Part shown: positions 606-14,646 of the stretch, one piece after another
How the letters are laid out: each line of letters starts with the position of its first letter
Position numbering within the stretch: the stretch's first letter is position 1
Assembly: GCA_965201155.1 (NCBI GenBank)
Contig: OZ241752.1
Coordinates: forward strand, 1,452,761-1,516,760
Length of the DNA: 64,000 nucleotides
Source of the DNA: Alphaproteobacteria bacterium
GTDB lineage: Bacteria > Pseudomonadota > Alphaproteobacteria > UBA7887
Direction: 5' to 3'
Notes under the pieces: generated by a model
Database searches by the model: none
What the model saw: only the letters and a program-made list of their open reading frames with translations
What the model was told of the DNA's origin: nothing
Made by a program: the position numbers and the translations under genes

Positions 606-937
606 GACCGCGGGCGGGCGCGGCGGCGGGGTTGTATTTTCCTGGGCAGCCGGTCCTCGTCGATATCCAGTCCGAGGGTATCGTCGCGCCGGTCGGCCGC
701 CTGGGCGAGACGGTCGGCAAGCCCCAGTATGGCCAGTACGGTTGCATAGATGCCGATGGAAACCGATGGGTCGCCGCGTTCGACCTTGTAGAAGGTGCCG
801 CGGCTGATGAATGCGCGCTCCGCCATGGATACCGTGGAGATGCGGCGTTTCTTGCGGGCGACGGTGATGTCCTCCCCCAGCTTGGAAAGGGCCTGTCTGG
901 CTGCTCTGGGCAGCGCATCCATCGCGCGCGCTTTCAT
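602..937 (-). CDS. XRE-family HTH antitoxin (HipB-like)
   Basis: LGEDITVARKKRRISTVSMAERAFISRGTFYKVERGDPSVSIGIY HTH; translationally coupled to hipA. Confidence 0.85.
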   Translation of the reverse strand: MKARAMDALPRAARQALSKLGEDITVARKKRRISTVSMAERAFISRGTFYKVERGDPSVSIGIYATVLAILGLADRLAQAADRRDDTLGLDIDEDRLPRKIQPRRRARPRS

Positions 938-1232
938 GATATGTCTTGTATTACGATCAATAAAGTCGGGTATTGCCCATTTTATGAGACAAATGGATAG
1001 TCGGTCAATGGATTTACGGGATCGCGGTTCTCTCCGTCGGGGGCCATAGCGAGCGCGTGCGGGTGATTGCGCATTACGGCGCTGTGCGGGCGGAGTCCAA
1101 GGACGCTGCCGGAGCGATATTGAGGGTGTGCCCGGGAAGTCGCGCCGCTCTTACCGTTATGTTCAGGTCAAGTCTATAACATATTGAAAAACATTGAATA
1201 TTTGTGCTATAACAGAGCTTGGGATTTTATGC

Positions 1233-1261
1233 TTGTCAGGTTTTGATTTTCGTGATAGCCT
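1233..1261 (+). promoter_or_regulatory. sigma70-type promoter of lipoprotein 1 (TTGTCA-N17-TAGCCT, TG-extended -10)
   Basis: Same elements and 17-nt spacing at 11871-11899 (TTGCCG-N17-TAGCCT) although the spacer sequence diverges. Confidence 0.65.
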
Positions 1262-1381
1262 AGTGCCAGAACTTCACGGGGCCTCTTCACGGGGCCTCTT
1301 CACGTTATTAAGAGTAGAGGCCCTGTAAGAGGTCTCTCACTGGAGGCTCCCCAACCGAATCATTATGGGGGTCCTCCATCA
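1262..1381 (+). promoter_or_regulatory. Conserved structured 5' leader, copy 1 (13-bp tandem repeat CTTCACGGGGCCT x2.5 plus two hairpins)
   Basis: Repeats at 1272-1304; partial reverse complement GAGGCCCTGTAAGAGG downstream; GGAGGCTCCCCA...TGGGGGTCCTCC stem ending just before the ATG; near-identical copy at 11900-12018. Confidence 0.7.
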
Positions 1382-3538
1382 ATGACATTTCAAAGAAGCT
1401 CCTTCGCGGTCGTGTTGGCCGCACTTGTTGCGGCGGGCTGCAGCAGTGATAGCAGCTCGCCCCCTGCCGCTCCACCTGAACAGCAGCCTGAACCGACGGT
1501 CCATATGCTGCCGCTTCCGGAAGGCGATCTCGGCTCGCTTGCCGCCGGAATGCTGATGCTTGGTGCCGGCGATACCACAACGCGCGGCAATGTCGAGTTT
1601 TCGTGCCCCGCTGGCGGAGACCCGTGCGGCATCGAGGTCATGAACAGTCTCGGCAGCCTGACTGCGACGTCGACCGGCGGAATGGCCACGGCAATGATGG
1701 TTGAAATGCCTGTGGACCCCGAGCCGACGGTTCATATGCTGCCGCTTCCGGAGGGCGATCCTGGCTCGCTTGCCGCTGGAATGCTGACGCTTGGCGCCGG
1801 CGATACGGCAACCCGCGGCAATGTCGAATTTTCATGCCCCGCCGGCGGAGAAGCGTGCGCCATCGAAGTCATGGCGAGCCTCGGCAGCCTGACGGCGACA
1901 TCGACCGGTGGAATGGCCACGGCGATGATAGTCGAGATGCCGGCAGGACCGGTGGTCCATACTGTCACCATGCCGCGCATTGCCGCCACTCAGGTCGCCG
2001 CGATGCTGGGCTCCGGCGACAGCGCAACGCTCCATCTTGCTGCAGGAATGTCGGATATTCAGGGGCCCGTCACATTCATGTGCGCAGCGGGCGGCGAGGA
2101 CTGCACGATCACAGTGGAAAACAAGCTTGGTTCACTCTCCGCCACGTCTTCCGGCGGTATGGCCAGCGCGTCCGCGATGCTGGCGCTTGAAGGCGGCCCA
2201 ATGCTCGACGGCACCATGACGATGGTGTCGCTGATGCCGGGAGAAGAAAAGACGGTGATGAGCGCTGACCCGCATCGCGCCAGTCAGATGTTCAAATGCC
2301 CCGCCACCGGGCCAGCCTGCGAAATCCATCTGATGACCGACGGCGGCATGACGATGGCCTCCTATACCGGCGGCATGCCCTCGGCGATGGCCGAAGGGCC
2401 GATGTATTACGGTTTGAGTTACGGGTCCGGAGGGGCTGGAGTCAAAGCGGCTTCTCTCCTGGATCCTGACAACAGCGACCGGCTCACCGGAAATATCGTC
2501 GGCGTGGGTACAGATATGGTCGCTCCGTCCATGACTGTGACAGTCGGCGGCAAGATGGCGATGGTCATGTTGGGAGACGGCGACGCGTCGATGCTGCTGG
2601 ACCGGATGGGTTCCGCAACCGGTCAAGGCGACGATGGCAGCACATTGGCCGTCGACCTCTATACGGACCTGGCAGACCCCATGTCGAAGAAAATCGGCGA
2701 TGTTGTCGATCTTGGGGAGAACGTCAAATTAGATAGACTTCTCGTAAATGAATCCGACCCTCGCTTGATTCCAGCTTCGCTTATCACTGTCTCTGAGTGG
2801 GGTGAGGGCGATAACGACAAAGTCAAACGCGCTCAAGGAACGTGGTACGGTATCCCCGGAAGCTTCAGTTGCAATGGGGAGTGCGCCAGCGCCATAACTC
2901 GGTTGGCTGGTACCGACAACGTCCTCCTTACCGGCAAAATCCAACTCGGTCTCGGTCCCAAGTACCAGGATACCATGGTGGATGTTGTGAGCGACGATTG
3001 GCTTTCCATGGGTACGTGGCTTGAGACGGATGCTGATGGAAATATGACGGCGGGAGCCTTCTATGCCAGCGGTATGCCCATGATGGATCCTCCCATTAAG
3101 GGGACAGCCACGACAGCCACGTATGCAGGAGACGCGGTAGGCCGATATTGGGGCGACGACGACGGAGTCAGAAAGGCAGGCAAATTTACGGCCGACGCAG
3201 CGCTGAGCGCGACCTTTGCTGCTACTCCAGCGGAGCAGATGGTATCGGGTACCCTGACCGGCTTCGTACTCGACGGGTCCACGAATGCTGATTGGCGTGT
3301 CGCGTTGAACAACGGGGGGGCATCAGTTTCCGGCATGGCCATGGGACATGCCCTGACGGACGGCGAGTGGACACACACGTTTTACCACGGTACGTCAACC
3401 ACAACCCCGAACCTGCTCGCGAACGACCCAACGGCCACGATTTGCACCGACTGCCCCGCTGCAGTTGCCGGTGATTTCGGAGCTAGGCACGGCAACAAGA
3501 TGGTGGATTTGATCGGAGCGTTTGCAGCCCGCAGATAA
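1382..3538 (+). CDS. Met-rich surface lipoprotein with four Cys-pair repeats and C-terminal TbpB-like beta-barrel
   Basis: Lipobox LVAAG-C; repeated FxCxAxGxxCxIxV units; C-terminal ATYAGDAVG...FTADAALSATF...VSGTLTGF...LIGAFAARR typical of the TbpB-like barrel. Confidence 0.75.
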   Translation: MTFQRSSFAVVLAALVAAGCSSDSSSPPAAPPEQQPEPTVHMLPLPEGDLGSLAAGMLMLGAGDTTTRGNVEFSCPAGGDPCGIEVMNSLGSLTATSTGGMATAMMVEMPVDPEPTVHMLPLPEGDPGSLAAGMLTLGAGDTATRGNVEFSCPAGGEACAIEVMASLGSLTATSTGGMATAMIVEMPAGPVVHTVTMPRIAATQVAAMLGSGDSATLHLAAGMSDIQGPVTFMCAAGGEDCTITVENKLGSLSATSSGGMASASAMLALEGGPMLDGTMTMVSLMPGEEKTVMSADPHRASQMFKCPATGPACEIHLMTDGGMTMASYTGGMPSAMAEGPMYYGLSYGSGGAGVKAASLLDPDNSDRLTGNIVGVGTDMVAPSMTVTVGGKMAMVMLGDGDASMLLDRMGSATGQGDDGSTLAVDLYTDLADPMSKKIGDVVDLGENVKLDRLLVNESDPRLIPASLITVSEWGEGDNDKVKRAQGTWYGIPGSFSCNGECASAITRLAGTDNVLLTGKIQLGLGPKYQDTMVDVVSDDWLSMGTWLETDADGNMTAGAFYASGMPMMDPPIKGTATTATYAGDAVGRYWGDDDGVRKAGKFTADAALSATFAATPAEQMVSGTLTGFVLDGSTNADWRVALNNGGASVSGMAMGHALTDGEWTHTFYHGTSTTTPNLLANDPTATICTDCPAAVAGDFGARHGNKMVDLIGAFAARR
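1490..1940 (+). repeat. Intragenic tandem duplication with 231-bp (77-aa) period in lipoprotein 1
   Basis: GAACCGACGGTCCATATGCTGCCGCTTCCGG at 1490 recurs as GAGCCGACGGTTCATATGCTGCCGCTTCCGG at 1721; protein units nearly identical. Confidence 0.92.
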
Positions 3539-3551
3539 CGCCCGGTCGAGG

Positions 3552-3625
3552 TGTTTTGCGTCCCCAGTTGAGCCCGTCTGTCGGACGCAAAGAGGAAGGG
3601 CGGCGCTTGCCGTCGCCCTTCCTTT
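3552..3625 (+). terminator. Double-hairpin 3' element: TTTGCGTCC/GGACGCAAA stem followed by intrinsic terminator
   Basis: GGAAGGGCGGCG-CTTGC-CGTCGCCCTTCC-TTT; paralogous copy at 13933-14007. Confidence 0.8.
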
Positions 3626-3901
3626 CTGAATTTAACGGGGATGACCGGACAGTTTCCGGCAGGCAGGCTGATCCGAAAAACGGGTCGTCAAAATCAGGCG
3701 GTTTTGTAAGGCTCCCTTGCACTGCAAATCCACCAAATTGCAGCCCGATCACTCACCAAGCCTTTGTTTTTATGCACCTTTCCATAAAACAAACAGGGAA
3801 AAACAACAAAATCTGCAGAAGGTGAGTCAAACCTTGGCATGGAAGTGGCGATCCGCCTCGACGGCCGTGACGTTCAGGACATCGGACGTGGGCATACCCG
3901 A

Positions 3902-4216
3902 TCAAGTGTTTTGCGTGCCGCCGGGTATCGCTCCGAGCCGAATAAGCTCGTCTTCGTACTCCTCCTGTCCGACGGTACAGCGTACAAGCCCCTCGAACAT
4001 CGCTCTGTTGACCCTGCACTGTTTGGCCATACGGCTCACCAGGTTATCCCCGATATCCTTCCCCGTGCGTCCGTGCGACGTCACGGTGAAGATGTCGGTT
4101 TTCGCGCCGTTTAGTCGAACGTAGAGAAATCGCACATGGCGGCCGCTGGCATCCTTGAGAAATCCCTTCTTCTTGAGGGAGTCCTCGACCTTCCGACGCT
4201 GAAGCGTCACCCGCAC
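3902..4216 (-). CDS. HicA-like mRNase toxin
   Basis: LKKKGF...GRHVRFLY...TVTSHG...DIGDNLVSRMAKQC pattern of HicA/YcfA-like proteins. Confidence 0.65.
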   Translation of the reverse strand: MRVTLQRRKVEDSLKKKGFLKDASGRHVRFLYVRLNGAKTDIFTVTSHGRTGKDIGDNLVSRMAKQCRVNRAMFEGLVRCTVGQEEYEDELIRLGAIPGGTQNT

Positions 4217-4725
4217 TCTCTCCGTCGAAGGTCAGCCTTCAGCTCTCTGGCCCTTCGGGACAGCCGAGTGTCGTCTTTCAATGCGTATTGCCGCCACAGG
4301 AACGGAAGGACATCGGTTTTCAGCTCGTCGATGGCGCTCCGCACGTCGGTCGCGTAAACGAAGACGCTTGCGTAGAGACCCTCTCCGAACACTTCCCAGG
4401 CGCCCTCCCGATCATTGCGGACTACGGAAAACTCCAGAGGAGGGTCGAGACGAACCACCTCGCCGTTGAACGGGAACTCGTCGAACGGGATCGGACCCAC
4501 AATGCAGACGATCTGTTCGTTCTCATCGCCCAAAGCCTGCGCTGCATATGGCGGATGGTGAACGACTGCGTCGCATCCGCTGGGGGTCTGGTGCGACGGT
4601 GCCATACCCGAAGCCGGCGCTGTGCTTCCGTCCGGAATAAAAGAGAGTCCATTGGTGGCGCCGCTCATGCCACCGCCCACACTGAGGACTGTGAGGGGCC
4701 GTGCGCACTGTCGGAGCGATCGCAT
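4207..4725 (-). CDS. Putative HicB-like antitoxin (start uncertain)
   Basis: C-terminal VFVYATDVRSAIDELKTDVLPFLWRQYALKDDTRLSRRARELK resembles HicB-like partners; overlaps the HicA-like gene. Confidence 0.5.
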   Translation of the reverse strand: MRSLRQCARPLTVLSVGGGMSGATNGLSFIPDGSTAPASGMAPSHQTPSGCDAVVHHPPYAAQALGDENEQIVCIVGPIPFDEFPFNGEVVRLDPPLEFSVVRNDREGAWEVFGEGLYASVFVYATDVRSAIDELKTDVLPFLWRQYALKDDTRLSRRARELKADLRRRECG

Positions 4726-4727
4726 TG

Positions 4728-4988
4728 TCAGGCGGCGCCGTCTTCTACCGGCGTCGGCCCGCTCACGACGCTGACCGCGTTCGAGCTCTGGAGCAGATAC
4801 ATCGGGTAGCCGAGATTATCCCTGAGATTACTGAGCTTGATGACACCCGTTGCGACCAGCTTGGTCCTCAGGACACTACCGTCCGAAAGGTGCAGTTCGT
4901 TGAAATGCTCGTCTGCTCTGACAATGTCGAGCACAACGCCCTCTTCCTCCCGGCCGTTGAAAGTGATCTTGGTCGGTATGCCGGCCAT
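4728..4988 (-). CDS. Small beta-rich hypothetical protein, first gene of the three-gene operon
   Basis: ATG at 4988 with GGAG RBS; MAGIPTKITFNG...EHFNELHLSDGSVLRTKLVATGV...GYPMYLLQSSNAVSV. Confidence 0.6.
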   Translation of the reverse strand: MAGIPTKITFNGREEEGVVLDIVRADEHFNELHLSDGSVLRTKLVATGVIKLSNLRDNLGYPMYLLQSSNAVSVVSGPTPVEDGAA

Positions 4989-5112
4989 GATGCGTCTCCT
5001 CTCGATCCTTGGCGCGCCGGTGGGCAAACGGACCGTTCGCCCGCACGGTATTCGAATCGCAACAAATGGGCCATCAGACAAATTTTGTCAATTTTCTCCT
5101 GTGATACCTTAA

Positions 5113-5845
5113 GGAAGGTCTGAACAAATGTGGTTTTGGCGGGTATTCGTGTTGTCTGGCTGGTCTGCGAGCCGCCGGGGCCCGTCGTCGGGGCGAAAAC
5201 TTGTCGTGTCGCAATGAGACAGGGGTGTAAAGGTCGGCTCAACGGCTGACGCGACCGTCTTCCCGCCGGCGTCGCGGCGGCTGCGCACGGATCGATCCCG
5301 TGTCACGCAGCGTAGCGCCCGGCGATCAGCAGATTGGACAGGCTCGCATCCACGATCGTCCCCGTCTTCAACCGGTGCCCCAGCGACGCCAGATGCGCGT
5401 TGATCTCATCGAACAGCGCCTCGCCCAGGCCGTGCCTCTCCAGCAGATGGCGGAAGTTCAGGATCGTCGTCTCGTCGGGCAGCGGACCTGACAGCCGCAG
5501 CCCGACAAAGCGCCGCATCGACTCCACCTCGTAAAGCAGGCCCTCCATCGCCGGATCGCTCAGGTTGTAGAACACCTGCACGCAGTGCACCCGCAGCATT
5601 GCCGCCAACGGATACGGCCGGCGCCCGCGCCCCGCCTTGGGGTAGAACGGCTCGATGCGCGCCTCCAGCCGTTCCCACGGGATCAGACCGTCCATCTTCT
5701 CCAGAAACACCTCGCGCCGTGTCCGGCGCTTCTTCGAAGCGTGCTCAAGCTCGGCAAAGGTCAACTGTTCCATCACTCACCCCACACCACCTGAACGATC
5801 TCACCCACCATAACTGAATCGACCGTCGACTTGTTCAGACCTTCC
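5113..5845 (-). mobile_element. Internally deleted IS5-family element (733 bp) with perfect 15-bp terminal inverted repeats
   Basis: GGAAGGTCTGAACAA at 5113-5127 and TTGTTCAGACCTTCC at 5831-5845; TTAA on the left flank only. Confidence 0.88.
5303..5776 (-). pseudogene. IS5 transposase with in-frame internal deletion
   Basis: IS5 N-terminus (TRREVFLEKM, GRRPYPLAAMLRVH, PDETTILNFRHLLE, GTIVDAS) joined directly to a C-terminal-like LSNLLIAGRYAA; most of the DDE core is missing. Confidence 0.85.
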
Positions 5846-6198
5846 CGGGAGCTGCTGGACGGCCTCGCCGAGAAAGCGTCCGGAGAACGGGTATTTCCGA
5901 GCGACAAGGAAGACGGCCGTTGAGATCGCATGACCTTTGGAAATTCTGGATCAAGGTGCGTGGCGCGGCGGGGATCGTGGCGGATGCGCGGCTGCATGAT
6001 CTTCGTCATGCGCACGCTTCGCACGCGGTGATGAACGGCGAAAGCCTGCATGTCGCGGGCCGTTTGCTCGGGCACCGGCGGGCGTCCACGACGAACCGAT
6101 ACGTCCATCTCGACGACGCGACCCTGAGCCAAGCCAGCGAGCGGGGAGCGGTGGCCGTGGAGCGGAAGCTGCGGCAAGGTGGGGTTGGCAACGGCTGA
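5846..6198 (+). pseudogene. Tyrosine integrase C-terminal fragment
   Basis: RLHDLRHAHAS...LLGHRRASTTNRYVH catalytic motifs; N-terminus removed at the IS end; frameshift near 5920. Confidence 0.85.
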
Positions 6199-6268
6199 GC
6201 GGGGTCGCGGTCCGCACGACGGCGAAAGCGGATTGAACGGCCCGGTGCTGGCGTGTAGAGTCGGCGGC

Positions 6269-6475
6269 ATGAGCGAACACAGGAAAAAGCACGCGCCGCC
6301 ACCCGACATACCGGGATTCCCGAAGGACTGGCGCGATCAGATCAAGGCCGACCTGGCGGCCCAGGTCGAGGCCGGCGGCACGCTGTACGGCGTCCGTTCG
6401 GACGGTGCCTATATCGCACGGACGAAGAACGGGGATCGGGTGATTGAGGAGCCCGGTGAGCGGAAGTCAGCCTGA
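6269..6475 (+). CDS. Small hypothetical protein, probable partner (antitoxin) of the zeta-like ATPase
   Basis: 68-aa ORF directly upstream of the zeta-like gene; role inferred from position. Confidence 0.5.
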   Translation: MSEHRKKHAPPPDIPGFPKDWRDQIKADLAAQVEAGGTLYGVRSDGAYIARTKNGDRVIEEPGERKSA

Positions 6476-6496
6476 CCCCGGCCGGCATCCGCTGCT

Positions 6497-6925
6497 GTGC
6501 CGGCTCTCTTGGTCGTTGCCGGCCCGAATGGGTGCGGCAAGTCGACCCTGACCCGTATGAGCGGGTTCAGGGGGCTCGAAATCATCGACCCCGACGCCAT
6601 TGCGCGCAACATCACGTCTGGCGACCCTCTACAGGCGGGGCGCGAGGCGCTGCGCCGGCGGCGGGATGCGCTTACCGACGGCCGGTTGCATCTGGTGGAG
6701 ACCACGCTTGCCGGTTCCGGCATTCTCCGCCACATGACGGCGGTGCGGCGGGAAGGCTACCGGATCATCCTGCACTATGTGTCGGTCGCCTCGCCGGACC
6801 GGGCACTCGACCGCATCCGCAACCGGGTGGCGCTCGGTGGCCACGACGTCCCGGAATCCGACGCCAGACGGCGGTTCGTGCGGTCGCACGCCAATCTGCC
6901 GGCGGCGATGGCGCGGGCGGAGTTT
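6497..6925 (+). pseudogene. Zeta-toxin-like P-loop ATPase, 3'-truncated
   Basis: VAGPNGCGKST Walker A, IDPDAIA, ETTLAG, RVALGGHDVP; family-like sequence stops near 6920 where GC drops; the ORF reads on to 7234 antisense to the next gene. Confidence 0.75.
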
Positions 6926-6948
6926 AGCCGTTTTTTGTCTTGCGGCCC

Positions 6949-8274
6949 TCAGTCCACACCAAAAAATGAACATGGCATATCGGGACACAAAAAGGTCATG
7001 GGATTGGACGGCCCAATTACGTATTCGGGCCATTCGTCGGCCACCCGGTCAGCCTGTATCCTTTCTCGCTCTATCGGATCAATGCCGGACTGCAAGTCAG
7101 ACTGGAAATGTCCACGCACGTGTTCTGGGCGCAAAGCATTTTGTGCTGCTTGTATCAAGCTTTCAATGATTTCAATAAGGGCAGTTTTCGCCAAGATAGC
7201 AGGTAATGTAACACGGACCGAGGAGGGAGCATAGCCCAAACACACATGGCAGACGTGTGGGTGAGTGGGTTGTGTGGAAGAAAGGAATTGAGAGTGCTCT
7301 ATTCTTTCATCTCTCCTTGGAAAAATAGTAACGGAGTAAAGGTATCCGTACTCACCGGCTATCTGATCAGGAGGTCTGGATTCCAACCACTCTCGACGCA
7401 GTATGTCGATTTTCACGGAAAGCGGTTGATGCGAGTCAGCGACCCCAACTCTGGCCCAAATGCTCTCACCAACCTCTGTCCACGGGAACGGGTCGAGATA
7501 CAGAAACGCCTTTAGAACTTCATCTTCGGGTGGAGGGCGGAAAAAGTCGTCCGAATTATAAGATGAGCAAAAGGTCCAGAATCCTTTGTCTACATCCTTG
7601 AGCAGTTGTTCAACTCGATCCAGGTCGTTCTCATGACCGGACCTAAAATGTGCAATCCTGTGCCGAATCTGACTGATTTCAAGGAGCTTGGCGTCCCAAA
7701 TCGGCTGTGGCGGAAGGTATGGCTGGAACAATTTCCAGTTGGACGAAACAGTTTTGAGGAGATCATTCAATTGCATAAAGCTAGTTTGCAATTGGTCACT
7801 CGTAGACATGTGGGAAAGTTTCTTGTCATTCTCTAAAGGCCGGTAATTAGATAGCTTAAGATATTGATGCCATGCGTCACCGTGACGGCTCCGGAGCTCC
7901 ACATATACCATTATTCTAAGCCAAGTCTCAAATTGCCAAAGCCTTGAGTAGGTGGAAAAGCGTTCGGTGGGAAGTCTTTCTGCTGCCTCGGCCAAAGGGC
8001 CGGGCTCAAGGTGCTTACGCAACGCGCGGTTGATTTCGGTTTGATATCCCCGGCCGCCCGGCACCTTGTTCTTGAACCAAGTCAGCACATCCGCGTCCAA
8101 GCGCAATGTGATCTGCTTCTTGATCGGACGATAAAATTGGCCACGCCGCGCGTCTCCCCAATTCACAATCTCGGGGATGTCTCTCGTATCGATCCGATCA
8201 TCGGGGAGAGATGCGAGTTCGGCGAGGTCTGCTTTCTGGGCCTTGGTCAGTGACCTGGAAGTCGCCCTCTTCAT
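6949..8274 (-). CDS. BrnA antitoxin fused to Swt1-like HEPN domain protein
   Basis: BrnA motif IDTRDIPE...FYRPIKKQITLRLDADVLTWFK...GYQTEINRALR runs in frame into YSRLWQFETWLR...IRHRIAHFR (HEPN RxxxxH); ATG at 8274 preceded by GAGGAG. Confidence 0.72.
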   Translation of the reverse strand: MKRATSRSLTKAQKADLAELASLPDDRIDTRDIPEIVNWGDARRGQFYRPIKKQITLRLDADVLTWFKNKVPGGRGYQTEINRALRKHLEPGPLAEAAERLPTERFSTYSRLWQFETWLRIMVYVELRSRHGDAWHQYLKLSNYRPLENDKKLSHMSTSDQLQTSFMQLNDLLKTVSSNWKLFQPYLPPQPIWDAKLLEISQIRHRIAHFRSGHENDLDRVEQLLKDVDKGFWTFCSSYNSDDFFRPPPEDEVLKAFLYLDPFPWTEVGESIWARVGVADSHQPLSVKIDILRREWLESRPPDQIAGEYGYLYSVTIFPRRDERIEHSQFLSSTQPTHPHVCHVCLGYAPSSVRVTLPAILAKTALIEIIESLIQAAQNALRPEHVRGHFQSDLQSGIDPIERERIQADRVADEWPEYVIGPSNPMTFLCPDMPCSFFGVD

Positions 8275-8553
8275 AGAGTCTCCTCTCGTGGGGTGTGGCC
8301 TTTCGAGCGCTGATGAGCTGATGATTCGTCCGGTTTTCTTGCCGGTTTCATGGTTCATCCGAAGCGGGGTGTGTATGACGATCACAATGACGTTCGCGAT
8401 CATGCCGATGGTCTGCCATCTTTCCTCGTGCGGATAGGGGTCCTGCCGCGAGGCTGCCAACGGATCATCGAACACGAGTTGGGCTGTCTCGAAACCCAGC
8501 TTGTGCTTTCGTCTGTTGGCGTAGCTCTTGCTCTCGTCCCATGTCCAGCGCAA
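8275..8553 (-). pseudogene. brnT: BrnT toxin frameshifted by an 8-bp duplication and read through into BrnA
   Basis: WTWDESKSYANRRKHKLGFETAQLVFDDP...EERWQTIG...RIIS; GCTGATGA repeated at 8309-8324; removing one copy restores RIISARKATPHERRLYEE. Confidence 0.85.
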
Positions 8554-8579
8554 CGAAAGAAATCTCCAGTAGTATCGTT

Positions 8580-8607
8580 ATTGTAGTTACAATCCTGACA
8601 CTGTCAA
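8580..8607 (-). promoter_or_regulatory. brnTA promoter (TTGACA-N16-TACAAT) with palindromic operator ATTGTA-GT-TACAAT
   Basis: Palindrome 8580-8593 overlaps the -10; second palindrome TGACACTGTCA at 8596-8606 overlaps the -35. Confidence 0.65.
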
Positions 8608-8675
8608 GGGTTGGCTGACAGGGAGAATGGGCCGCACGAGTGGAGGCCCCTTCTGGACCCGCATCACTGGTATAA

Positions 8676-9956
8676 GGGAGCCTCTCAAAATCGTCTGATT
8701 TTGCGTCTTGATATGGTAGAATCTGCGTTGTCGCGCGAGGGAGGCGAGTTTGATGGGAATGCCGGGTTTCTTCGATCTGGACGAGCGGTTTGCGAAGCTT
8801 GATGGGTTGGGCGATCCGCTGGCGAGGCTGGCCGGCGTTGTCGACTGGGAGGGATTTCGCCCGGTGCTGGATGCAGCGCTGTCGAAGCCGCGCAAGAGCA
8901 ATGCCGGTCGCAAGGAATATGACCGGGTTCTCATGTTCAAGGTCCTGGTCTTGCAGCAGATGTACAACCTGAGCGACGACCAGACTGAGTTTCAGGTCCG
9001 GGACCGCTACTCGTTCGCCCGGTTCCTGGGGCTGTATCCGGAGGATGCGGTACCTGATGCGAAGACGATCTGGCGGTTTCGCGAGAACCTGAAACTTGCA
9101 GACGCGTTTGACGGCCTGTTTTCGGAACTGACTTCGCAGATCGAGGGTCAGGGCTATGTGGCGCGCCGGGGACAGATCGTGGATGCGAGCTTTGTGAAAG
9201 CGCCGCGTCAGCGCAACAGCCGTGACGAGAACGCACAGGTGAAGGCGGGTGAGGTGCCGTCTGGATGGTCGCAGAAGAAGCGTCGTCACAAGGACACCGA
9301 CGCACGCTGGACCCGCAAGAGAGGTGAGACGCATTACGGCTACAAGAACCACATCAGCGTGGACCGTGCCTATGGTCTTGTCCGCCGCTGGGATGCGAGC
9401 GACGCGGCATGTCACGACAGCCGGGTCTTCGAGCAGGTGCTTGATGAGAAGAACACCAGTGGCGATGTCTGGGCGGACAGTGCCTGCTACAGCCGGGCAC
9501 ATGAAGCGTTGCTGACCGAAGGGGGCTGGCGCAGCCACATTCACCGCAAGGGGTATCGTAATCGTCCCTTGCCGGCGCGCTCGCGCGAAGCCAATCGCAA
9601 GCGTTCGAAAGTGCGTGCTGCCGTGGAGCATGTGTTTGCTCAACACGAGGCCATGGGCGGCAAGCGGGTCAGGACCATCGGCCTGGCGCGGGCGCGTATC
9701 AAGATCGGAATGATGAACCTGGTGTACAATCTTCGCCGGCTTGCCTGGCTGACGGAAAATCGCCCGCAGGTGTGTCGCTACGCGCTGTAATGACTGCCCA
9801 CGCGGAAGCGGCACCCCCTGCGACCGGTTTCTGGCTCTCCGACCATGGTCGGAAACCCCTTTATCTCGCCTGATCCGTATCCCCCCAGACGCTTCACCCT
9901 GGAAATTTCAACAAATCTATCGGTGCACAGGCAAAACCCGATTACGAGAGCCTCCC
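8676..9956 (+). mobile_element. Complete IS5-family insertion sequence (1281 bp) with 5-bp target duplication TATAA
   Basis: Imperfect 18-bp IRs GGGAGCCTCTCAAAATCG and (reverse complement) GGGAGGCTCTCGTAATCG; TATAA at 8671-8675 and 9957-9961. Confidence 0.9.
8750..9790 (+). CDS. IS5-family DDE transposase
   Basis: LQQMYNLSDDQTE, VPDAKTIWRFRE, GQIVDAS, HYGYKNHISVD, VWADSAxY, RAAVEHVFA. Confidence 0.93.
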   Translation: MMGMPGFFDLDERFAKLDGLGDPLARLAGVVDWEGFRPVLDAALSKPRKSNAGRKEYDRVLMFKVLVLQQMYNLSDDQTEFQVRDRYSFARFLGLYPEDAVPDAKTIWRFRENLKLADAFDGLFSELTSQIEGQGYVARRGQIVDASFVKAPRQRNSRDENAQVKAGEVPSGWSQKKRRHKDTDARWTRKRGETHYGYKNHISVDRAYGLVRRWDASDAACHDSRVFEQVLDEKNTSGDVWADSACYSRAHEALLTEGGWRSHIHRKGYRNRPLPARSREANRKRSKVRAAVEHVFAQHEAMGGKRVRTIGLARARIKIGMMNLVYNLRRLAWLTENRPQVCRYAL

Positions 9957-10449
9957 TATAAGCGAGAAGCCCAGTCAGGAAAGTATCGGCCTGCAGGCTG
10001 CCACGCACTTGGCGCCAATCCCGAAACGCCTGATCCGCCAGATCGGCGAGGTCGAGCGCTTCCCGTCGGGTAAAGCGGAGAGCCCGGTTATAGTCCGCCT
10101 CGTGACGGGCTTCCTGAAGCTGGACGAAGGCAATGGCGACCTCGGCCAGCGGTTGTTGAATCTGTTGGCGGCCCAGGCCGGATGCCAGCTTGGGAGGTAT
10201 CGACCTCCTGGTGAATGCGACAGCGGTCTGTTTCATTGCAGCGTGGTGAAACGCTCGAGCGAGACTGTCGCGCAGAGGGCCGCGAACATTGCCCGACAGC
10301 ATGAGCTTTGTCACTTCATCGACCAGAAGGTGAAAGAGGGCGTAATAGGAGGCCGATACCGAGCGGCGAAGGCTAGCCTGGATCGGTTTCTTGGGTTCCT
10401 TGCGGGCAAGAAAATGAGCTTGCTTCAACAACTCCGAGTGAAGGCTCAT
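9778..10449 (-). CDS. HEPN-domain protein; extreme C-terminus interrupted by the IS at 9956
   Basis: RRSVSASYYALFH and LQEARHEADY HEPN motifs; residues after ...GLLAY are encoded by IS sequence. Confidence 0.72.
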   Translation of the reverse strand: MSLHSELLKQAHFLARKEPKKPIQASLRRSVSASYYALFHLLVDEVTKLMLSGNVRGPLRDSLARAFHHAAMKQTAVAFTRRSIPPKLASGLGRQQIQQPLAEVAIAFVQLQEARHEADYNRALRFTRREALDLADLADQAFRDWRQVRGSLQADTFLTGLLAYREALVIGFCLCTDRFVEISRVKRLGGYGSGEIKGFPTMVGEPETGRRGCRFRVGSHYSA

Positions 10450-10727
10450 TTCCCATCCTCGACTTCCGATGCGCCGCGAAAACGGACGTAGACCAGCATG
10501 GAGGAATCAGTCTTCTCGTCAACAAGGTCGCGAATCATTGAGCGCAGTCGTGACCGCTTGGCGAACTCGACGTCATCATCCTTCAGCATCGCCCAAACCC
10601 ATACGGCAGGATCGTCAGTGGAGTCGGGACCGGTCTTGACATGCCAGTTGCTGACAGGGGTAGGCAGTTCGGAAAGCTGGCGAAGCGCAGCTTCGATGGT
10701 GCTTGCGGTGATATCCATGTCAGTCAC
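10446..10727 (-). CDS. Small partner of the HEPN protein (degenerate nucleotidyltransferase-like antitoxin candidate)
   Basis: ATGA overlap with the HEPN gene; GPDSTDDPAVWVWAML...VYVRFR. Confidence 0.55.
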   Translation of the reverse strand: MTDMDITASTIEAALRQLSELPTPVSNWHVKTGPDSTDDPAVWVWAMLKDDDVEFAKRSRLRSMIRDLVDEKTDSSMLVYVRFRGASEVEDGK

Positions 10728-10826
10728 CCATCAGGTCTGTCGGCAGCCTTGGAGCCTGCACTTGGTGTCTCAAGGGCGAGTAGGGTAGCGGAGGTGGCTG
10801 CCTGCAACCCGAGTGGTGGATCGGCC

Positions 10827-11111
10827 TCAGCCGTCAGCGGGCACCAGATCCACGGTCAGCCGCGTTCCGGTCGCCGCCGCATAGCGACGCAGCGTCGCGA
10901 AGGAAGGCGATACCCGCCCGCCCTCCAGCCGCGCGATCGCCGACTGCGTTGTTCCGAGCCGGCGGGCGAGTTCCGCCTGCGTCAGCTTCGCCGCCGCACG
11001 GGCGCGAACCAGCGCTTCGATGAGCGCATATTCCTCGTCGATGCGCCCATACTCCTCCCGGAACTCCGGGTCTTTCATGAAGCGTGCCTTGAGTTCCTTC
11101 AGCTTCGTCAT
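10827..11111 (-). CDS. XRE HTH antitoxin (HigA-like)
   Basis: MKDPEFREEY...LTQAELARRLGTTQSAIARLEGGRVSPSFATLRRYA. Confidence 0.88.
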   Translation of the reverse strand: MTKLKELKARFMKDPEFREEYGRIDEEYALIEALVRARAAAKLTQAELARRLGTTQSAIARLEGGRVSPSFATLRRYAAATGTRLTVDLVPADG

Positions 11112-11431
11112 GTCATCATATACCTCATCCGTTCCCGTGCCGTCGCGAGCGCGCGGCGCGGCGTCTTGCGCGACTTCTTCGTAAACACGTGCAACGCCAC
11201 CACCCGCCTGTCCGCCGCCGTCAGGTAGATCCCCCGCGCCGCATCGCCCTCGGCGTGCACCCGCAGCTCCCAAAGCTTGCCTTCAAGATGCCTGGCATGC
11301 GGAGCACGAAGCGCCGCCAGACCGACATTCTCCACCGTCTTCAATAGCCGGATCATCCGGGCGCGCAGCCTCGCCGGCAGCGCCTCAATTTTGGCGTCGG
11401 CGGTCGCGACGGTTTCGACCGTCCATCGCAT
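11108..11431 (-). CDS. RelE/ParE-family (phage Gp49-like) toxin
   Basis: PHARHLEGKLWELRV...RGIY...VVALHVFTKKSRKTP; toxin-first, ATGA-coupled to the HTH gene. Confidence 0.88.
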   Translation of the reverse strand: MRWTVETVATADAKIEALPARLRARMIRLLKTVENVGLAALRAPHARHLEGKLWELRVHAEGDAARGIYLTAADRRVVALHVFTKKSRKTPRRALATARERMRYMMT

Positions 11432-11439
11432 CCCGTCAG

Positions 11440-11457
11440 TATAGCGCATCTGCTATA
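11440..11457. promoter_or_regulatory. Palindromic operator TATAGC-N6-GCTATA upstream of the RelE/HTH pair
   Basis: Perfect 6-bp inverted repeat just upstream of the toxin ATG; autoregulation inferred. Confidence 0.5.
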
Positions 11458-11870
11458 GTATTGCAAGTTTCGGGGTGTACGAAATGTCGGCTTCCGCCAT
11501 GCCGCCGACGGCAGCGCGATCGCCTGCATCCGGCACCGAGCGCGTCGGCGAAACCCGGACGATGGACGGGATATCTTCTCGCGCATCACGCAGTCGACCG
11601 CTCGCGCCGCGCCAGCACCCCGACGTGCTCGAATGGTTGTCTCCCCGCAACGCTCGCCGCACCTGCACCGGGCGCTGGCAGGCGCAGTGATCCAATTGCC
11701 TGGGAGGAAAGTGGCAGGCAAGAAATTATCAGCTACCACAATGACTTAGGAAATGTCCGCCATCACCCCGACCCACCATGCTGAACAAGGCGGGCTGAAC
11801 CCCAATCGATAGACAATGTGAAGAAATAAACCGATATAATATCAAGATGCAGGCGGAGTTTATTTTTGGC

Positions 11871-12018
11871 TTGCCGAAGCCGGGTTTTTGTGATAGCCTG
11901 GGGCCAGAACTTCACGGGGCCTCTTCACGGGGCCTCTTCACGTATTAAGAGTCGAGGCCTCGTAAGAGGCCTCTCGTCGGAGGCTCCCCAACCGAATCAT
12001 TATGGGGGTCCTCCATCA
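11871..12018 (+). promoter_or_regulatory. Promoter and conserved structured leader, copy 2
   Basis: TTGCCG-N17-TAGCCT; CTTCACGGGGCCT x2.5 at 11910-11942; same hairpins as 1262-1381. Confidence 0.7.
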
Positions 12019-13899
12019 ATGACATTCCAAAGAAGCTCTCTCGCGGTTTTGATGGCCGCACTTGTTGTGGCGGGCTGCAGCGATAGTGATAGCTCGCCCC
12101 CTGCTGATCTGACCGACGATACAACCCAAGCCACGCCTGTACAAATAGATCTCGCCGGGGTGACGGCTACCCCCGCGGCGGGCAGTCTCAACCTCGGTCC
12201 GGGCCAGACAGGCGACATCGGCGACATTTCCTTCATGTGCGCCAGTGGCGGCGAATCCTGCATGGTCACGGTGAAGGAGGACGGAACCGCCGAATCTACA
12301 GGCGGCATGGTCACGGCCATGGATTCCGCAGCCTACAAGCTGCGCATGGCTCAGAACCAGTACAACACCGAACTCAATATGGCCAAGACGGCGGCAGAGG
12401 CCGCGAAGAACGCGGCGGCAGAGGCCGCAACCAGCGCCAGAACCCACGCCGTTAATGCGATGGGTGCTGTGGCAAATCGCGCAGCCATCCAGACCAGCAG
12501 CCTGATGGACGAGACTGCCGAAACCTATGCCATGAAGGCTGGTACGCACGCTGATCAGGCAGAAGCAGCGTCCGCAGAGGCGATGGAGGCGTACAATGAC
12601 GCGATGGAGGCGACGGTGATCGCCGACGCTGCGATGAAACAGGCTCTGGCCGAAGGACATCAGGCGGACGCGGCGGATCATGCAATGAAGGCCGGCGAGA
12701 AAGAGACCGCCGCAATGACTGCCGCTGCCATGGATGTCATGATTGATCACAGTGGAGACCACCCGGTGGTATCCGTCGGAAGTGCCTCCATTATGGCCGA
12801 TGGCAAGCTCAACGCTGACGGAGGATCCGGCGTCCGTATCTTGCCCCGTGAGCCTCACATGGCCTCTACGCCCCAAGGCCAAGAGATTACGGTATCGCCA
12901 CGTATGCTGCCGCTCGGCATGACCTACAACACTACTGGTGTACGCCTCGACGTAGTGGACAGCTACGAAAGTGAAATGTCCGTCGTGGCGTTCAAGGATA
13001 CGCGCGACCCCGACACAGGCAAACTGATGACAAGGCTCATGACCACCGAACCAAACGTGATTTCGGTGAAGGATCAGCCGGCCCTGCTGACGAAAGCCGC
13101 TGGCGAGTACTATAAGGTGGGTGTCAGGAGAGATGGCTACGACAATCTCGCTGATGTGGGCATCCGGGCGGGCACAGAGGGCGAACCTCTCTATTTCTAT
13201 CACGATGGCGCAAATATGAAGTATGCGCGGCTGGTGGAATCGAGGATGGATGCGCATGGCGTAACAACTTGGGTTTATGCGATGGTGGATCTGGCGGGCA
13301 GGGCCATGCTTCCGGTGTCGGCATCCTATAACCACCTCTCGTATGGAATGTGGGCTAACAAATATGCCGGCGCACTTTCCCCTGCTTCCGATGCTAACCA
13401 CATAGCTTTCGTCGACGCGAAGGGCAGCGGAATGACCAAGGTGTCTGAGATGCCACTCCGGCGCGGCGCCGCCACATATACGGGACAGTATATCGCCACG
13501 GTTTCGACGGGTGGCAGTGCGTTGCCCATGACGCGGATAGATGATGCGATGCTGACCGCGCGTTTCGGCATGGGCAGTTTCAACGAAATTGAGGATAACT
13601 CGGTCGAGCTTGTCTTGACGGACGTGATGAAGCCCGGAATGACAAAGCTCGCGGGAACTATCGACGGGTCCATGTTCAGTGGAGACAAGGCTCCGATGAT
13701 GTCGATGATGAATGAAGATAGCGCCATGAGTGCCTATACCGGCATGGATTACGCGGGTTCGTTCACTGGCTCCTTCTTCGGCCCGGGTGCCCCAGAGGCC
13801 GGCGGTGTGTTCAAATACATGAGTAAGGGAAATGAGGACACGGGTGTTATGCCCGGTGCCATGGGTTGGTTCCACGGATCCTTCGGTGCTGCTCGTTAA
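12019..13899 (+). CDS. Met-rich surface lipoprotein paralog with one Cys-pair repeat, Ala-rich helical stalk and TbpB-like barrel
   Basis: MTFQRSS...LVVAG-C lipobox shared with 1382-3538; FMCASGGESCMVTV; ATYTGQY...GTIDGSMFSG...GSFFGPGAPEAGGVF...GSFGAAR. Confidence 0.78.
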   Translation: MTFQRSSLAVLMAALVVAGCSDSDSSPPADLTDDTTQATPVQIDLAGVTATPAAGSLNLGPGQTGDIGDISFMCASGGESCMVTVKEDGTAESTGGMVTAMDSAAYKLRMAQNQYNTELNMAKTAAEAAKNAAAEAATSARTHAVNAMGAVANRAAIQTSSLMDETAETYAMKAGTHADQAEAASAEAMEAYNDAMEATVIADAAMKQALAEGHQADAADHAMKAGEKETAAMTAAAMDVMIDHSGDHPVVSVGSASIMADGKLNADGGSGVRILPREPHMASTPQGQEITVSPRMLPLGMTYNTTGVRLDVVDSYESEMSVVAFKDTRDPDTGKLMTRLMTTEPNVISVKDQPALLTKAAGEYYKVGVRRDGYDNLADVGIRAGTEGEPLYFYHDGANMKYARLVESRMDAHGVTTWVYAMVDLAGRAMLPVSASYNHLSYGMWANKYAGALSPASDANHIAFVDAKGSGMTKVSEMPLRRGAATYTGQYIATVSTGGSALPMTRIDDAMLTARFGMGSFNEIEDNSVELVLTDVMKPGMTKLAGTIDGSMFSGDKAPMMSMMNEDSAMSAYTGMDYAGSFTGSFFGPGAPEAGGVFKYMSKGNEDTGVMPGAMGWFHGSFGAAR

Positions 13900-13932
13900 C
13901 CGGTGAAGGGCGGCTAACCCACACTCCCGCAC

Positions 13933-14007
13933 TGTTTTGCGTCCCCAGTTGAGCCCGTCTGTTGGACGCAAATCTGGAAGGGCGGCGCTAATCGCCGCCC
14001 TTCCTTT
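13933..14007 (+). terminator. Double-hairpin 3' element, copy 2
   Basis: TTTGCGTCC...GGACGCAAA then GGAAGGGCGGCG-CTAAT-CGCCGCCCTTCC-TTT. Confidence 0.8.
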
Positions 14008-14199
14008 GCGCCAAATTCAAAGCCTGAGACCCTGACACAACAAAAGGGCGCCGGCAGTACGCCGAGATGCCGCCGCGGCCGGAACAGGCGTGGATTTCGG
14101 GACAGCGCCCGATGAAACGCACCAAACATAACCTCGCCGCATCCCCGGACAGCAGGCAGATCCTTGTCAGGGTGCACCGCTGACTCGGAGACCATTTCC

Positions 14200-14397
14200 G
14201 TGAACAGAACCTGCAAGCGCTGCGGCGGAGACATCGACCGGCCAACGCCGCCTCGTGCCGGTCGACGCCCGGAATATTGCAAGAACTGCCGCGCGGAATT
14301 GCTGCGTGAGCACAGGCGCGCATCAAACAGGCGGTTGAACGAGCGGCGCAAGGCGGCAATGAAGTTCTTTCGCGAGGCACAGAAAAGCGGGACATAA
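14200..14397 (+). CDS. Small basic CxxC...CxxC zinc-finger protein
   Basis: GGAG RBS, GTG start; RTCKRCGGDI...GRRPEYCKNCR followed by a basic helix. Confidence 0.6.
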   Translation: MNRTCKRCGGDIDRPTPPRAGRRPEYCKNCRAELLREHRRASNRRLNERRKAAMKFFREAQKSGT

Positions 14398-14618: not shown

Positions 14619-14646
14619 CAAATCCCGGCAAATCCCGGCAAATCCC
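14619..14646. repeat. 10-bp tandem repeat CAAATCCCGG x2.8
   Basis: Seen directly, immediately before a TTGACG hexamer upstream of serC. Confidence 0.8.

Follow-up and report, generated by a model that had tools for sequence, protein, structure and literature searches.

The window analysed here is a stretch of 64,000 nucleotides (G000:C1:1452761-1516760) of the single-contig genome G000 (2.93 Mb, 64% GC), whose source organism is, by the run labels, an uncultured alphaproteobacterium recovered from sponge metagenomes. It carries two lipoprotein genes, called A (1382-3538) and B (12019-13899) in the following, that begin and end almost alike and have little in common in between. We think it likely that A and B are members of a lineage-specific family of Slam-type surface lipoproteins, whose ends have been homogenised and whose cores have been shuffled by homologous recombination, that is, by gene conversion. 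A sequence-only reading of the window had already singled out the pair as cassettes with constant ends and variable cores. Their 5′ (~225 bp) and 3′ (~75 bp) ends are indeed each 89% identical, and BLASTN of cassette A against cassette B returns these two end blocks and nothing between them. That reading had known only these two copies, but they turned out to be two of 13 loci genome-wide, a third cassette lying ~0.7 kb before the window start.

Ten of the 13 family loci found by BLASTN and whole-genome search possess both end blocks, two the 5′ block alone and one the 3′ block alone, so that 12 loci carry the 5′ block and 11 the 3′ block:

c764k, c790k, c976k, c1250k, c1343k, c1450k, A, B, c1673k and c2095k: both end blocks
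c966k: 5′ block only; gene with collagen-like Gly-X-Y repeats, interrupted by an IS5 copy
c1405k: 5′ block only, diverged
c2108k: 3′ block only, behind a 5′-truncated gene fragment

A lipobox signal peptide opens every family reading frame except the c2108k fragment. The cassettes sit in unrelated chromosomal contexts, some of them amid housekeeping genes, and c1450k, A and B follow each other in direct orientation within ~16 kb. Phage-tail or gene-transfer-agent-like genes (L060:496-5818; DUF1833, and Phage-tail_3 with a GpJ FNIII domain, 1248 aa) end ~0.75 kb before c1450k. The phage-tail-like gene before c1450k and serA after B lie far apart in all five congeners of our comparison set, which further comprises 17 genomes of other genera of the same taxonomic family.

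The family repeats are not an assembly artefact, as contigs from independent public runs of two studies agree letter for letter with the unique cores of both genes (A, 1358-3578; B, 12479-13961) and break at the shared end blocks, where their summed depth is 4-5 times that of the flanks. These public data are contigs from four runs and not raw reads, so that rare variants, transcript starts and within-population repeat variation lie below their resolution. In run X8, which bears another host label and has a depth of ~2, contigs cover 5816-13427 and give no cover on 1603-4806; a strain without gene A may lie behind this gap, missing cover being no evidence. The public gene calls for A (P0001, 677 aa, from residue 42) and B (P0160, 615 aa) start inside the genes, and the lipoprotein signal peptides are consequently missing from the deposited proteins.

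In the pairwise alignment of A and B, the upstream similarity runs from the −35-like hexamer (1233/11871) to just past the codons for ...SSPP. A direct-repeat search of window positions 1-16000 returned it as repeats D3 (1247-1305 versus 11885-11943, 59 nt, 95%) and D2 (1306-1472 versus 11943-12109, 167 nt, 86%), and BLASTN of 1240-1470 against the whole genome gave the copy of B with 89.3% identity over 224 columns (E 3.5e-79). The block holds the following features:

1233-1261 (+): predicted promoter of A, read from the sequence; −35 TTGTCA (1233-1238), 17-nt spacer, TG-extended −10 TAGCCT (1253-1261)
1272-1304 (+): tandem repeat of A, 2.5 copies of the 13-nt unit CTTCACGGGGCCT, at the predicted mRNA start
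1278-1339 (+): long leader hairpin of A, in which two direct units pair with two inverted Shine-Dalgarno-like copies (AAGAGUAGAGGCC, AAGAGGUCUC)
1342-1377 (+): second leader hairpin of A, GGAGGCUCCCC...GGGGGUCCUCC, ending 4 nt before the ATG
11871-12014 (+): 5′ block of B; −35 TTGCCG (11871-11876), TG-extended −10 TAGCCT (11891-11899), 2.5 copies of the 13-nt repeat (11910-11942), long hairpin, ribosome-binding-site hairpin (11979-12014)

The predicted promoter is kept in register in 11 cassettes (−35 TTGTCA or TTGCCA), and upstream of the −35 the similarity among cassettes fades gradually, without a sharp boundary. About 10 nt past the predicted −10 follows the first repeat unit, which is present in 2.5 copies in nine cassettes and in 3.5 copies in c976k and c2095k, the latter in a 12-nt variant; tandem copies of the 13-nt unit within G000 occur at 11 cassette loci only. 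The unit CTTCACGGGGCCT (12-nt variant CCTTCACGGGGC) contains CCUC; besides 1272-1304 and 11910-11942 in the window, it was recorded in L028, L027, L029, L033 and L065-L068. The leader of A is predicted to fold with −58.7 kcal/mol (z −5.9, 0/200 shuffles as stable) and that of B with −57.9 kcal/mol (z −5.6). Enclosed in the second hairpin is the likely ribosome-binding site GGGGGU, ending 9 nt before the ATG, and c790k keeps a hairpin at this site with different letters, including GGAGG in its 3′ arm; the hairpin may be one that acts in translation. A G-quadruplex reading of the GGGG runs of the repeat was dropped for G000, where each leader has two such runs only. The signal peptides with their lipobox cysteine, as read from the translations, are MTFQRSSFAVVLAALVAAG/C in A and MTFQRSSLAVLMAALVVAG/C in B.

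Downstream of A and B, two hairpins are the sole shared sequence in the pairwise alignment. They correspond to direct repeats D4 (3552-3591 versus 13933-13972, 40 nt, 98%) and D5 (3594-3625 versus 13976-14007, 32 nt, 88%), and BLASTN aligns the two 3′ blocks with 89.3% identity over 75 columns (E 1.3e-21):

3552-3591 (+): 3′ hairpin 1 of A, 9-bp stem UUUGCGUCC/GGACGCAAA, loop of ~20 nt
3594-3625 (+): 3′ hairpin 2 of A, GC-rich terminator-like stem-loop, then TTT
13933-14007 (+): 3′ block of B; hairpin 1 (13933-13972) and terminator-like hairpin 2 (13976-14007), fold z −4.2

Hairpin 1 is the most conserved piece of the family, with 5 substitutions in the 440 nt of its 11 copies in G000, stem and loop alike. 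In this genome it stands exclusively behind family genes, 7 to ~120 nt past the stop codon, and it is near-invariant even between cassettes whose 5′ blocks are just 70-80% alike. The stem of hairpin 2 varies between cassettes and is complementary within each, and thus covaries. A search of window positions 1-16000 against Rfam at E up to 1 gave 0 matches, so the leader and the 3′ hairpin correspond to no RNA family described there.

The identity of these ends is set against the heterogeneity of what they enclose. Promoter and leader (141 nt upstream) are 89-99% identical among seven cassettes and the signal-peptide codons 85-100%, with the tether CSDSDSSPP shared, and the 3′ flank is 79-99% identical among the ten cassettes with both blocks. 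Over the last 250 residues, by contrast, 12 members are 28-66% identical (A and B 32% over 114 residues) and fall into four types with 28-35% identity between types:

C-terminal type I: c764k, c976k, c1250k, c1343k, c1450k
C-terminal type II: A, c790k
C-terminal type III: B, c2095k
C-terminal type IV: c1673k, c1405k, c2108k

A single pair illustrates the contrast, as A and c1450k are 96% identical upstream, 95% downstream and 34% in the C-terminus. Four C-terminal types at ~30% identity are too far apart for recent duplication followed by fast divergence to suffice as an explanation.

Along individual genes the relationships change as well. The first 532 nt of c1250k and c1343k agree at 99.6%, a tract with ~390 coding bases in which silent sites are unchanged, and beyond it the two are unalignable; in the mid-core the nearest pair is c1343k-c1450k (79-82%) as compared with ~45-50% for c1250k-c1343k, and over the last 100 nt all converge to at least 90%. 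The 3′ blocks of c764k and c790k are 100% identical while their 5′ blocks share only short stretches of 72-84%, which shows that the 5′ and 3′ ends have different histories, and over the family the two blocks give different nearest neighbours. The recombination-type mosaicism that the sequence-only reading had suspected is thus visible in cores that switch their nearest relatives along the genes. The ends also appear young. Neither the full 5′ block nor the 3′ block was found in any of the five congeners, and the 13-nt repeat alone is found in four of them, so that, this repeat apart, the ends look young relative to cores of 28-35% identity. The 24-nt core of the 3′ hairpin gave 0 matches in a metagenome collection, where an empty answer proves little. 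As read from these alignments, ends that are young and homogeneous around cores that are old and heterogeneous bear the mark of gene conversion or of repeated recombination.

The encoded proteins are laid out as follows:

1382-3538 (+): gene A, 718-aa lipoprotein; lipobox LVAAG/C (Cys20, codon 1439-1441); tether SSDSSSPP
1502-1699, 1733-1930, 1985-2176 and, partial, ~2189-2392 (+): Cys-pair modules of gene A, from a hidden Markov model (HMM) of the module
~2597-3535 (+): handle and β-barrel of gene A
12019-13899 (+): gene B, 626-aa lipoprotein; signal peptide as in A, then tether CSDSDSSPP; a single Cys-pair module (12139-12324); Ala-rich stretch, predicted as helical; C-terminus TbpB-like

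Gene A yielded an AlphaFold2 model (62-row alignment) with a mean predicted local distance difference test score (pLDDT) of 71.3, mostly 80-95 in the modules and the C-terminus. In this model three Cys-pair modules are small all-β domains (pLDDT ~90), residues 267-405 are unmodelled and residues 406-718 form a β-rich handle plus barrel. Aligned with VIA-align, this last part matches fHbp with a Z of 13.6 (root-mean-square deviation 2.6, 155 aligned), NHBA with 12.4 and the TbpB C-lobe and hemophilin with 12.3 each, all of them cargo of Slam, the type 11 secretion system (T11SS); the best Foldseek matches of A in the Protein Data Bank (PDB) are HpuA (2e-4) and then NHBA, TbpB, PmSLP, fHbp, HphA and LbpB. 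On the strength of the model, the C-terminus of A has the Slam-cargo fold of fHbp/TbpB type. The TbpB-like C-terminal barrel raised on first reading was in this way borne out for A, by fold (Z 13.6 to fHbp), and is putative for B, which has a Pfam match to TbpB_B_D (PF01298) of 26.5 bits against a cut-off of 26, restricted to profile positions 63-121, its structure model having failed. The NCBIfam model slam_lipo scores B with 32.2 bits, below its cut-off of 80. The paralog c2095k, which passes PF01298 with 37.6-43 bits, is the only relative found for B (47% by word search, 51% over the C-terminal half), and none of the 22 other genomes of the taxonomic family searched holds a counterpart of the C-terminal half of B.

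Family cores contain 0-4 copies of a 65-aa Cys-pair domain, some together with a helical, collagen-like or His/Ala-rich stalk. The difference in architecture that had been noted between A and B persists in the module HMM, with four matches in A (the fourth partial) and one in B, while the helical stalk of B, long helices over residues 104-237 after the module, is a prediction from a low-confidence model. The module has no match in Pfam and is confined in G000 to ten family genes, as compared with 2, 1, 1, 0 and 0 Cys-pair genes in the congeners and none in the 17 genomes of other genera. A phmmer search with gene A returned 342 clusters among 1.84 billion representatives, the best of them mostly owing to the module region; a single protein matches over as many as 15 stretches. 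An ESM Atlas look-up of the modules gave no usable match, a pattern search with five closer module rows 32 pattern matches of which 0 were confirmed, and a congener's protein used as query for related loci found its own record and one paralog only.

As to the other C-terminal types, type I aligns to the family profile of A with an hhalign probability of 98.3% (E 1.8e-14), its profile finding 0 matches among PDB sequences at E up to 10, and type IV shares the barrel motifs of B in the alignment. A genome search for Slam, which the earlier reading had called for, found one gene, a 519-aa frame at G000:C1:1236892-1237761 that matches PF04575 (DUF560) with 55-57 bits against a cut-off of 22; tetratricopeptide repeat models match it below their cut-offs only. 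A whole-genome scan with PF01298 gave 13 matches, nine of them in eight frames outside the family. By its modelled fold, A belongs with the Slam-dependent surface lipoproteins, and B and the other members probably do so by their sequences; from the fold, a role as surface antigens or in host interaction may be envisaged.

Two observations on the proteins may be added. Behind the family leader and signal peptide, c966k (G000:C1:965124-965945; L051:5125-5946, minus strand) matches Pfam Collagen with E 2e-13, and a TonB-dependent receptor gene lies downstream. The 12 mature family proteins, which are acidic and poor in Lys and Arg, contain 4.8-8.9% Met as compared with a median of 2.0% for long frames of the genome (95th percentile 3.9%); metal binding or oxidant scavenging are guesses as to why.

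In the reading we prefer, each intact member would be a self-contained expression unit with a common front and a common back. The front would consist of a sigma-70-type promoter, a structured leader of ~110 nt, a lipoprotein signal peptide and a short Ser/Asp/Pro tether, where the 2.5-3.5 copies of the CCUC-containing 13-nt repeat would pair with Shine-Dalgarno-like decoys and the second hairpin would mask the ribosome-binding site. The back would be formed by the near-invariant 40-nt hairpin and the terminator-like hairpin, and the middle by 0-4 Cys-pair β modules, an optional stalk and one of four diverged handle-barrel ends of TbpB/fHbp type. The protein would be exported by Sec, lipidated at Cys20, carried to the outer membrane by Lol and displayed on the surface by the single Slam via its C-terminal barrel. 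Recombination would keep the end modules alike within G000 and shuffle core segments between loci, possibly also from incoming DNA; as the ends carry shared regulation and export signals, selection probably acts on them too.

Several points weigh against this reading. Recombination is read from the pattern, and no recombination event between cassettes was observed, the cores of A and B being identical in the runs of two studies. The near-invariance of hairpin 1 could stem from strong sequence-specific selection and not from conversion, and the conservation of the 13-nt repeat across genera could likewise reflect selection. A consensus scan for promoters and terminators called neither a shared promoter nor a shared terminator, the former because its −10 matches at just three of six positions and hairpin 2 because its tail has only four T. 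In the consensus fold of 11 leaders both hairpins are kept, with compensatory change in 3 of the 32 predicted pairs; most leader copies are nearly identical, which accounts for the little covariation. For gene B, the putative barrel exceeds the Pfam cut-off by 0.5 bit, and the AlphaFold2 model (five sequences, mean pLDDT 38.6) is unreliable outside the module, having failed for too few relatives. The presumed type IV barrel is assigned by alignment to B alone, and the C-terminus of c966k is lost to view where the IS5 copy interrupts the gene. The Slam gene lies between genes for aldehyde dehydrogenase and ApbE and adjoins no cassette, the nearest being c1250k at ~12 kb, and Slam-dependent display of the cassette proteins stays putative. 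Adjacency is not strictly defining, since cargo is adjacent to Slam in ~52% of the curated Slams according to PMC5449769.

A bolder version of the proposal would see in the end blocks a portable exchange frame for Slam cargo, with the front and the 40-nt hairpin as homology or recognition anchors between which cores are swapped among the dozen loci and captured from incoming DNA; the hairpin would then be either a new sequence-specific recombination signal or a family-wide post-transcriptional tag. We hold this to be possible and rather unlikely. If true, it would mean that a host-associated, non-pathogenic symbiont has a programmable surface repertoire.

The opposite view dispenses with recombination and takes the cassettes for old paralogs, with ends held by purifying selection alone and exposed cores drifting or under diversifying selection. 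It can point to the plausible functions of the ends (promoter, structured leader, signal peptide, terminator), to the conservation of the 13-nt repeat across genera and to the invariance of hairpin 1 in loop and stem. Purifying selection by itself is nevertheless insufficient for the sharp breakpoints, where identity drops within genes from ~100% to ~45% and the nearest relative changes, for the unchanged silent sites in the ~390 coding bases of the 532-nt tract at 99.6%, or for the incongruent neighbours of the 5′ and 3′ blocks, and the youth of the ends, not found in the five congeners searched save for the 13-nt repeat, fits badly with cores of 28-35% identity. We regard this explanation as improbable.

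The sequence-only reading had itself suggested active antigenic variation, in which cores are swapped via the constant ends and toxin-antitoxin (TA) modules persist by killing cells that loop out the 10.6-kb segment between A and B. The TA genes it had reported between the cassettes are there, in the form of a HicA-like gene, BrnT/BrnA and a Gp49/HigB-like gene with a helix-turn-helix (HTH) partner, with HipA/HTH upstream. The intervals before A and between A and B contain:

3-937 (−): hipB-like HTH gene (602-937) and N-terminal part of a hipA-like kinase gene (3-605), between c1450k and A; Pfam Couple_hipA, HTH_31
3902-4725 (−): HicA-like toxin gene (3902-4216) overlapping a 172-aa gene of no known family (4207-4725)
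5303-5776 (−): N-terminal fragment of an IS5-family transposase; Pfam DUF772; NCBIfam IS5 positions 1-124 of 285
5920-6198 (+): C-terminal fragment of a tyrosine recombinase, 92 aa; Pfam Phage_integrase; XerC/XerD-like models far below their cut-offs
6179-7234 (+): 98-aa gene of no known family, then a P-loop kinase-like gene; AAA_33 26.2 bits and Zeta_toxin 19.2 bits, both below cut-offs
6949-8553 (−): single 534-aa frame; BrnT toxin at residues 5-80, BrnA antitoxin at 122-181, HEPN-like part at 176-320
8750-9790 (+): full-length IS5-family transposase gene; NCBIfam NF033581 269 bits, cut-off 140
9778-10727 (−): a 93-aa gene and then a 223-aa gene, overlapping, neither in a known family; PHROG 5176 (unknown function) only
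10827-11449 (−): higB-like toxin gene of the Gp49 family (11108-11449; Pfam Gp49 88.7 bits), with an Xre-type HTH antitoxin gene that probably starts at 11111 and ends at 10827 (HTH_3 45.9 bits); PHROGs matches

TA modules can stabilise dispensable chromosomal segments, and the setting of c1450k, A and B in direct orientation within ~16 kb, with at least one TA-type pair per interval, would suit such a lock. So would an enrichment, albeit a modest one, of toxin families near cassettes. Genome-wide matches to the PIN, ParE and Gp49 models make up 19 rows, or 18 points once one Gp49 row of the same locus is dropped, and 4/18 points lie within 5 kb of a cassette as compared with 0.88 expected (circular-shift P 0.012 by points, 0.05 by cassettes). 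IS5-like copies are similarly enriched near cassettes (4/21, P 0.02-0.03), so that shared residence in the flexible part of the genome suffices to explain the association. In Pfam scans of the 5-kb flanks, six of the 13 cassettes have a TA-type gene within 5 kb and seven have none, and three of the six (c764k, c976k, c1405k) are solitary, where a cassette-to-cassette deletion is impossible. Several of the modules themselves look decayed or odd: the HicA-like gene is below its cut-off, BrnT, BrnA and HEPN share one frame, and one pair is cut by IS5. Nor did the contigs of four runs contain any in-register loop-out or chimeric joint of A and B, and the cores are identical across two studies. The supposed penalty on loop-out by TA modules thus found no direct support, and the idea that cassettes are interchangeable in present-day populations was not supported by these contigs, which are blind to rare variants. 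We rate antigenic variation with a TA lock as improbable too, a shade below the recombination-free view. The TA part of the idea adds nothing beyond ordinary island content: what separates A from B (TA genes, IS5 copies, the recombinase fragment) looks like cargo and debris of a flexible region of lower GC (57-62%, with a trough of 48.9% at 7001-8000, as compared with 65-67% in serC/serA downstream) and not like part of a dedicated system.

Contig joints such as 1307>12030, 1453>3553, 1453>13934, 3625>14622 and 12102>1523 were considered as loop-outs and rejected; they are out of register or leave the intervening sequence undefined, and contigs from other paralogs, matching both of the shared blocks, would account for them. 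One contig of the RNA-library run X6 (about 11900-12102 joined to about 1523 onward, that is, the shared 5′ block plus a Cys-pair module) has a depth of 1032 as compared with ~11 for A- and B-specific contigs. It probably belongs to another paralog, of c976k or c764k type, and the difference in depth does no more than hint at unequal expression among family members, given that contig depth cannot rank genes and the library may hold DNA.

Some details of the individual modules deserve mention. The hipA gene continues before the window start, with HipA_C at L060:8143-8742, and TIGR03070 (couple_hipB) scores below its cut-off. The HicA-like gene reaches 23.8 bits with Pfam HicA_toxin, for which the cut-off is 27, and the genes at 3902-4725 found nothing in NCBIfam, PADLOC or PHROGs. 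The two genes at 6179-7234 are a possible TA pair. The frame at 6949-8553 scores 61.7 bits with BrnT_toxin, 52.4 bits with BrnA_antitoxin and 21.2 bits with HEPN_Swt1 in Pfam, matches the PADLOC candidate PDC-M34B (E 6.6e-12) and falls into toxin and antitoxin families of PHROGs; it is either a fusion by stop-codon loss or three genes that share a frame by chance. G000 holds 21 IS5-family loci by BLASTN. The tail of the 223-aa frame (9778-10449) is the same as the tail that closes the IS-interrupted frame of c966k, from which it follows that this frame runs into the end of the IS5 copy at 8750-9790 and has an IS-encoded tail; IS5 probably disrupted the 223-aa gene. A variant that lacks 9788-9911 and has 15 other letters in its place is seen in contigs of three runs.

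Least probable among the explanations that we weighed is a mobile or portable expression cassette, in which the 40-nt 3′ hairpin, perhaps together with the leader repeat, would be the site for a dedicated recombinase or an RNA-level factor. The conservation of hairpin 1 far above that of its surroundings, its restriction to family genes, the unrelated genomic contexts of the cassettes, some amid housekeeping genes, and the tyrosine-recombinase fragment between A and B speak for it. Against it, the flanks scanned contain no intact recombinase linked to cassettes, there are no target-site duplications, the similarity upstream of the −35 fades gradually, and the hairpin has neither an Rfam match nor a copy outside G000 in the collections searched. 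Integron attC sites vary in sequence, unlike this hairpin, and each cassette has its own promoter. Integron gene cassettes were accordingly rejected, the flanks scanned lacking an intact integrase and the loci being dispersed, with promoters of their own and an invariant hairpin sequence.

We compared the family with described systems. Closest in how it works are the Erp proteins of Borrelia burgdorferi (OspE/F-related, 'upstream homology box'), whose paralogs, according to PMC10016077, share promoter/operator DNA, the leader peptide and the first mature residues, while the frames beyond the leader have several origins and are mosaic by recombination, the loci being stable over the observed time. 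Shared front, mosaic mature parts and stability over the observed data are all seen in the G000 family. The Erp genes of this spirochete lie on cp32 prophage plasmids, at one allelic site, and make no use of Slam, whereas here the loci are dispersed over the chromosome and the proteins end in a TbpB/fHbp-type barrel; the G000 family also shares a 3′ block, and no such block was encountered for erp in the passages of PMC10016077 consulted.

With the Slam-dependent lipoproteins TbpB, LbpB, fHbp, HpuA, NHBA, hemophilin/HphA and PmSLP (PMC5449769), the family has the lipobox, the C-terminal handle with eight-stranded barrel (by modelled fold in A, putatively in B), the variable N-terminal parts and a DUF560 Slam in the genome in common. 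It differs in its organism, an uncultured sponge-metagenome bacterium outside the pathogens studied so far, in having 12-13 cargo genes on one expression module, none of them adjoining Slam, and in its Met-rich proteins with N-terminal parts built from an undescribed 65-aa Cys-pair module. In Mycoplasma agalactiae vpma and M. bovis vsp, PMC2268961 describes conserved 5′ UTRs (untranslated regions) and signal-peptide codons in front of differing mature parts, just as in G000. The vpma and vsp genes form one cluster in which a single promoter is moved by the site-specific recombinase Xer1/Mbr in the 5′ UTR, in contrast to the dispersed loci with own promoters and no intact linked recombinase found here. 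Given 13 dispersed chromosomal loci with promoters of their own, and only a 92-aa recombinase fragment nearby, the G000 family works like the Erp and vsp families and is not a member of them.

The predicted leader has a counterpart in hmw1A/hmw2A of Haemophilus influenzae. There, according to PMC12721329, transcribed heptamer repeats make up the left arm of a long hairpin whose right arm is rich in purines; RNase III processes this hairpin, and expression is set by the number of repeats. In the present leaders two 13-nt units would pair with two inverted copies. Paralogs differ in how many copies they have, and in congeners the number is as high as 7-16. The unit has 13 nt in place of 7 and occurs in just 2.5-3.5 copies in G000. 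A further parallel is the opa family of Neisseria, whose dozen or so scattered loci have conserved ends and exchange their hypervariable internal regions by recombination. Opa proteins are integral β-barrels switched by a coding pentamer repeat, whereas the G000 products are lipoproteins and their repeat is non-coding.

New in the present family are the shared-front design in Slam cargo, the shared 3′ module with its invariant hairpin, the Cys-pair module and the sponge-metagenome setting; a limited literature search on Slam, surface lipoproteins, TbpB and Alphaproteobacteria found no such family described among the papers listed. Work on the cargo of Slam (type 11 secretion) has proceeded gene by gene and almost exclusively in pathogens, and here a dozen such genes with shuffled cores stand on a single expression and export module. 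If confirmed, the design of one leader and many exposed parts known from Borrelia and Mycoplasma lipoproteins would have arisen for Slam cargo too, symbionts would diversify their surfaces by the same genetic tricks as pathogens, and the leader with its 13-nt repeat and masked ribosome-binding site as well as the 40-nt 3′ hairpin would be family-wide control elements. The undescribed 65-aa Cys-pair module is a target for structural work.

Beyond G000, the repeat unit forms arrays of 16 copies in G001 and of 8 in G003, and in G002 arrays of a 12-nt unit precede two paralogs, one with 11 and the other with 7 copies. These congener arrays follow directly on a predicted −10 that resembles the one in G000, and they stand ahead of the ribosome-binding site of genes for lipoproteins or secreted proteins. 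Four metagenome contigs carry the same 13-mer in 5-9 copies; a gene start follows in three of them, the fourth ending just past the array, and of the three genes two have a lipobox, one of these two with a Cys-pair module. In minimum-free-energy folds of three such leaders, the repeat unit pairs with the Shine-Dalgarno region. With only 2.5-3.5 copies, frequent slippage is unlikely in G000; there the repeat is more likely to form a constant arm within the folded leader. Two G002 paralogs (L061, L062) encode lipoproteins of 977 and 1005 aa with six Cys-pair module matches each; their identity is 87% from ~700 nt upstream to ~1.5 kb inside the gene, falls to ~70% in the C-terminal portion and rises to 96% over 579 nt starting ~320 nt (L061) or ~260 nt (L062) past the stop codon, a profile that amounts to a similar pattern of constant flanks in a second species, made of different sequences.

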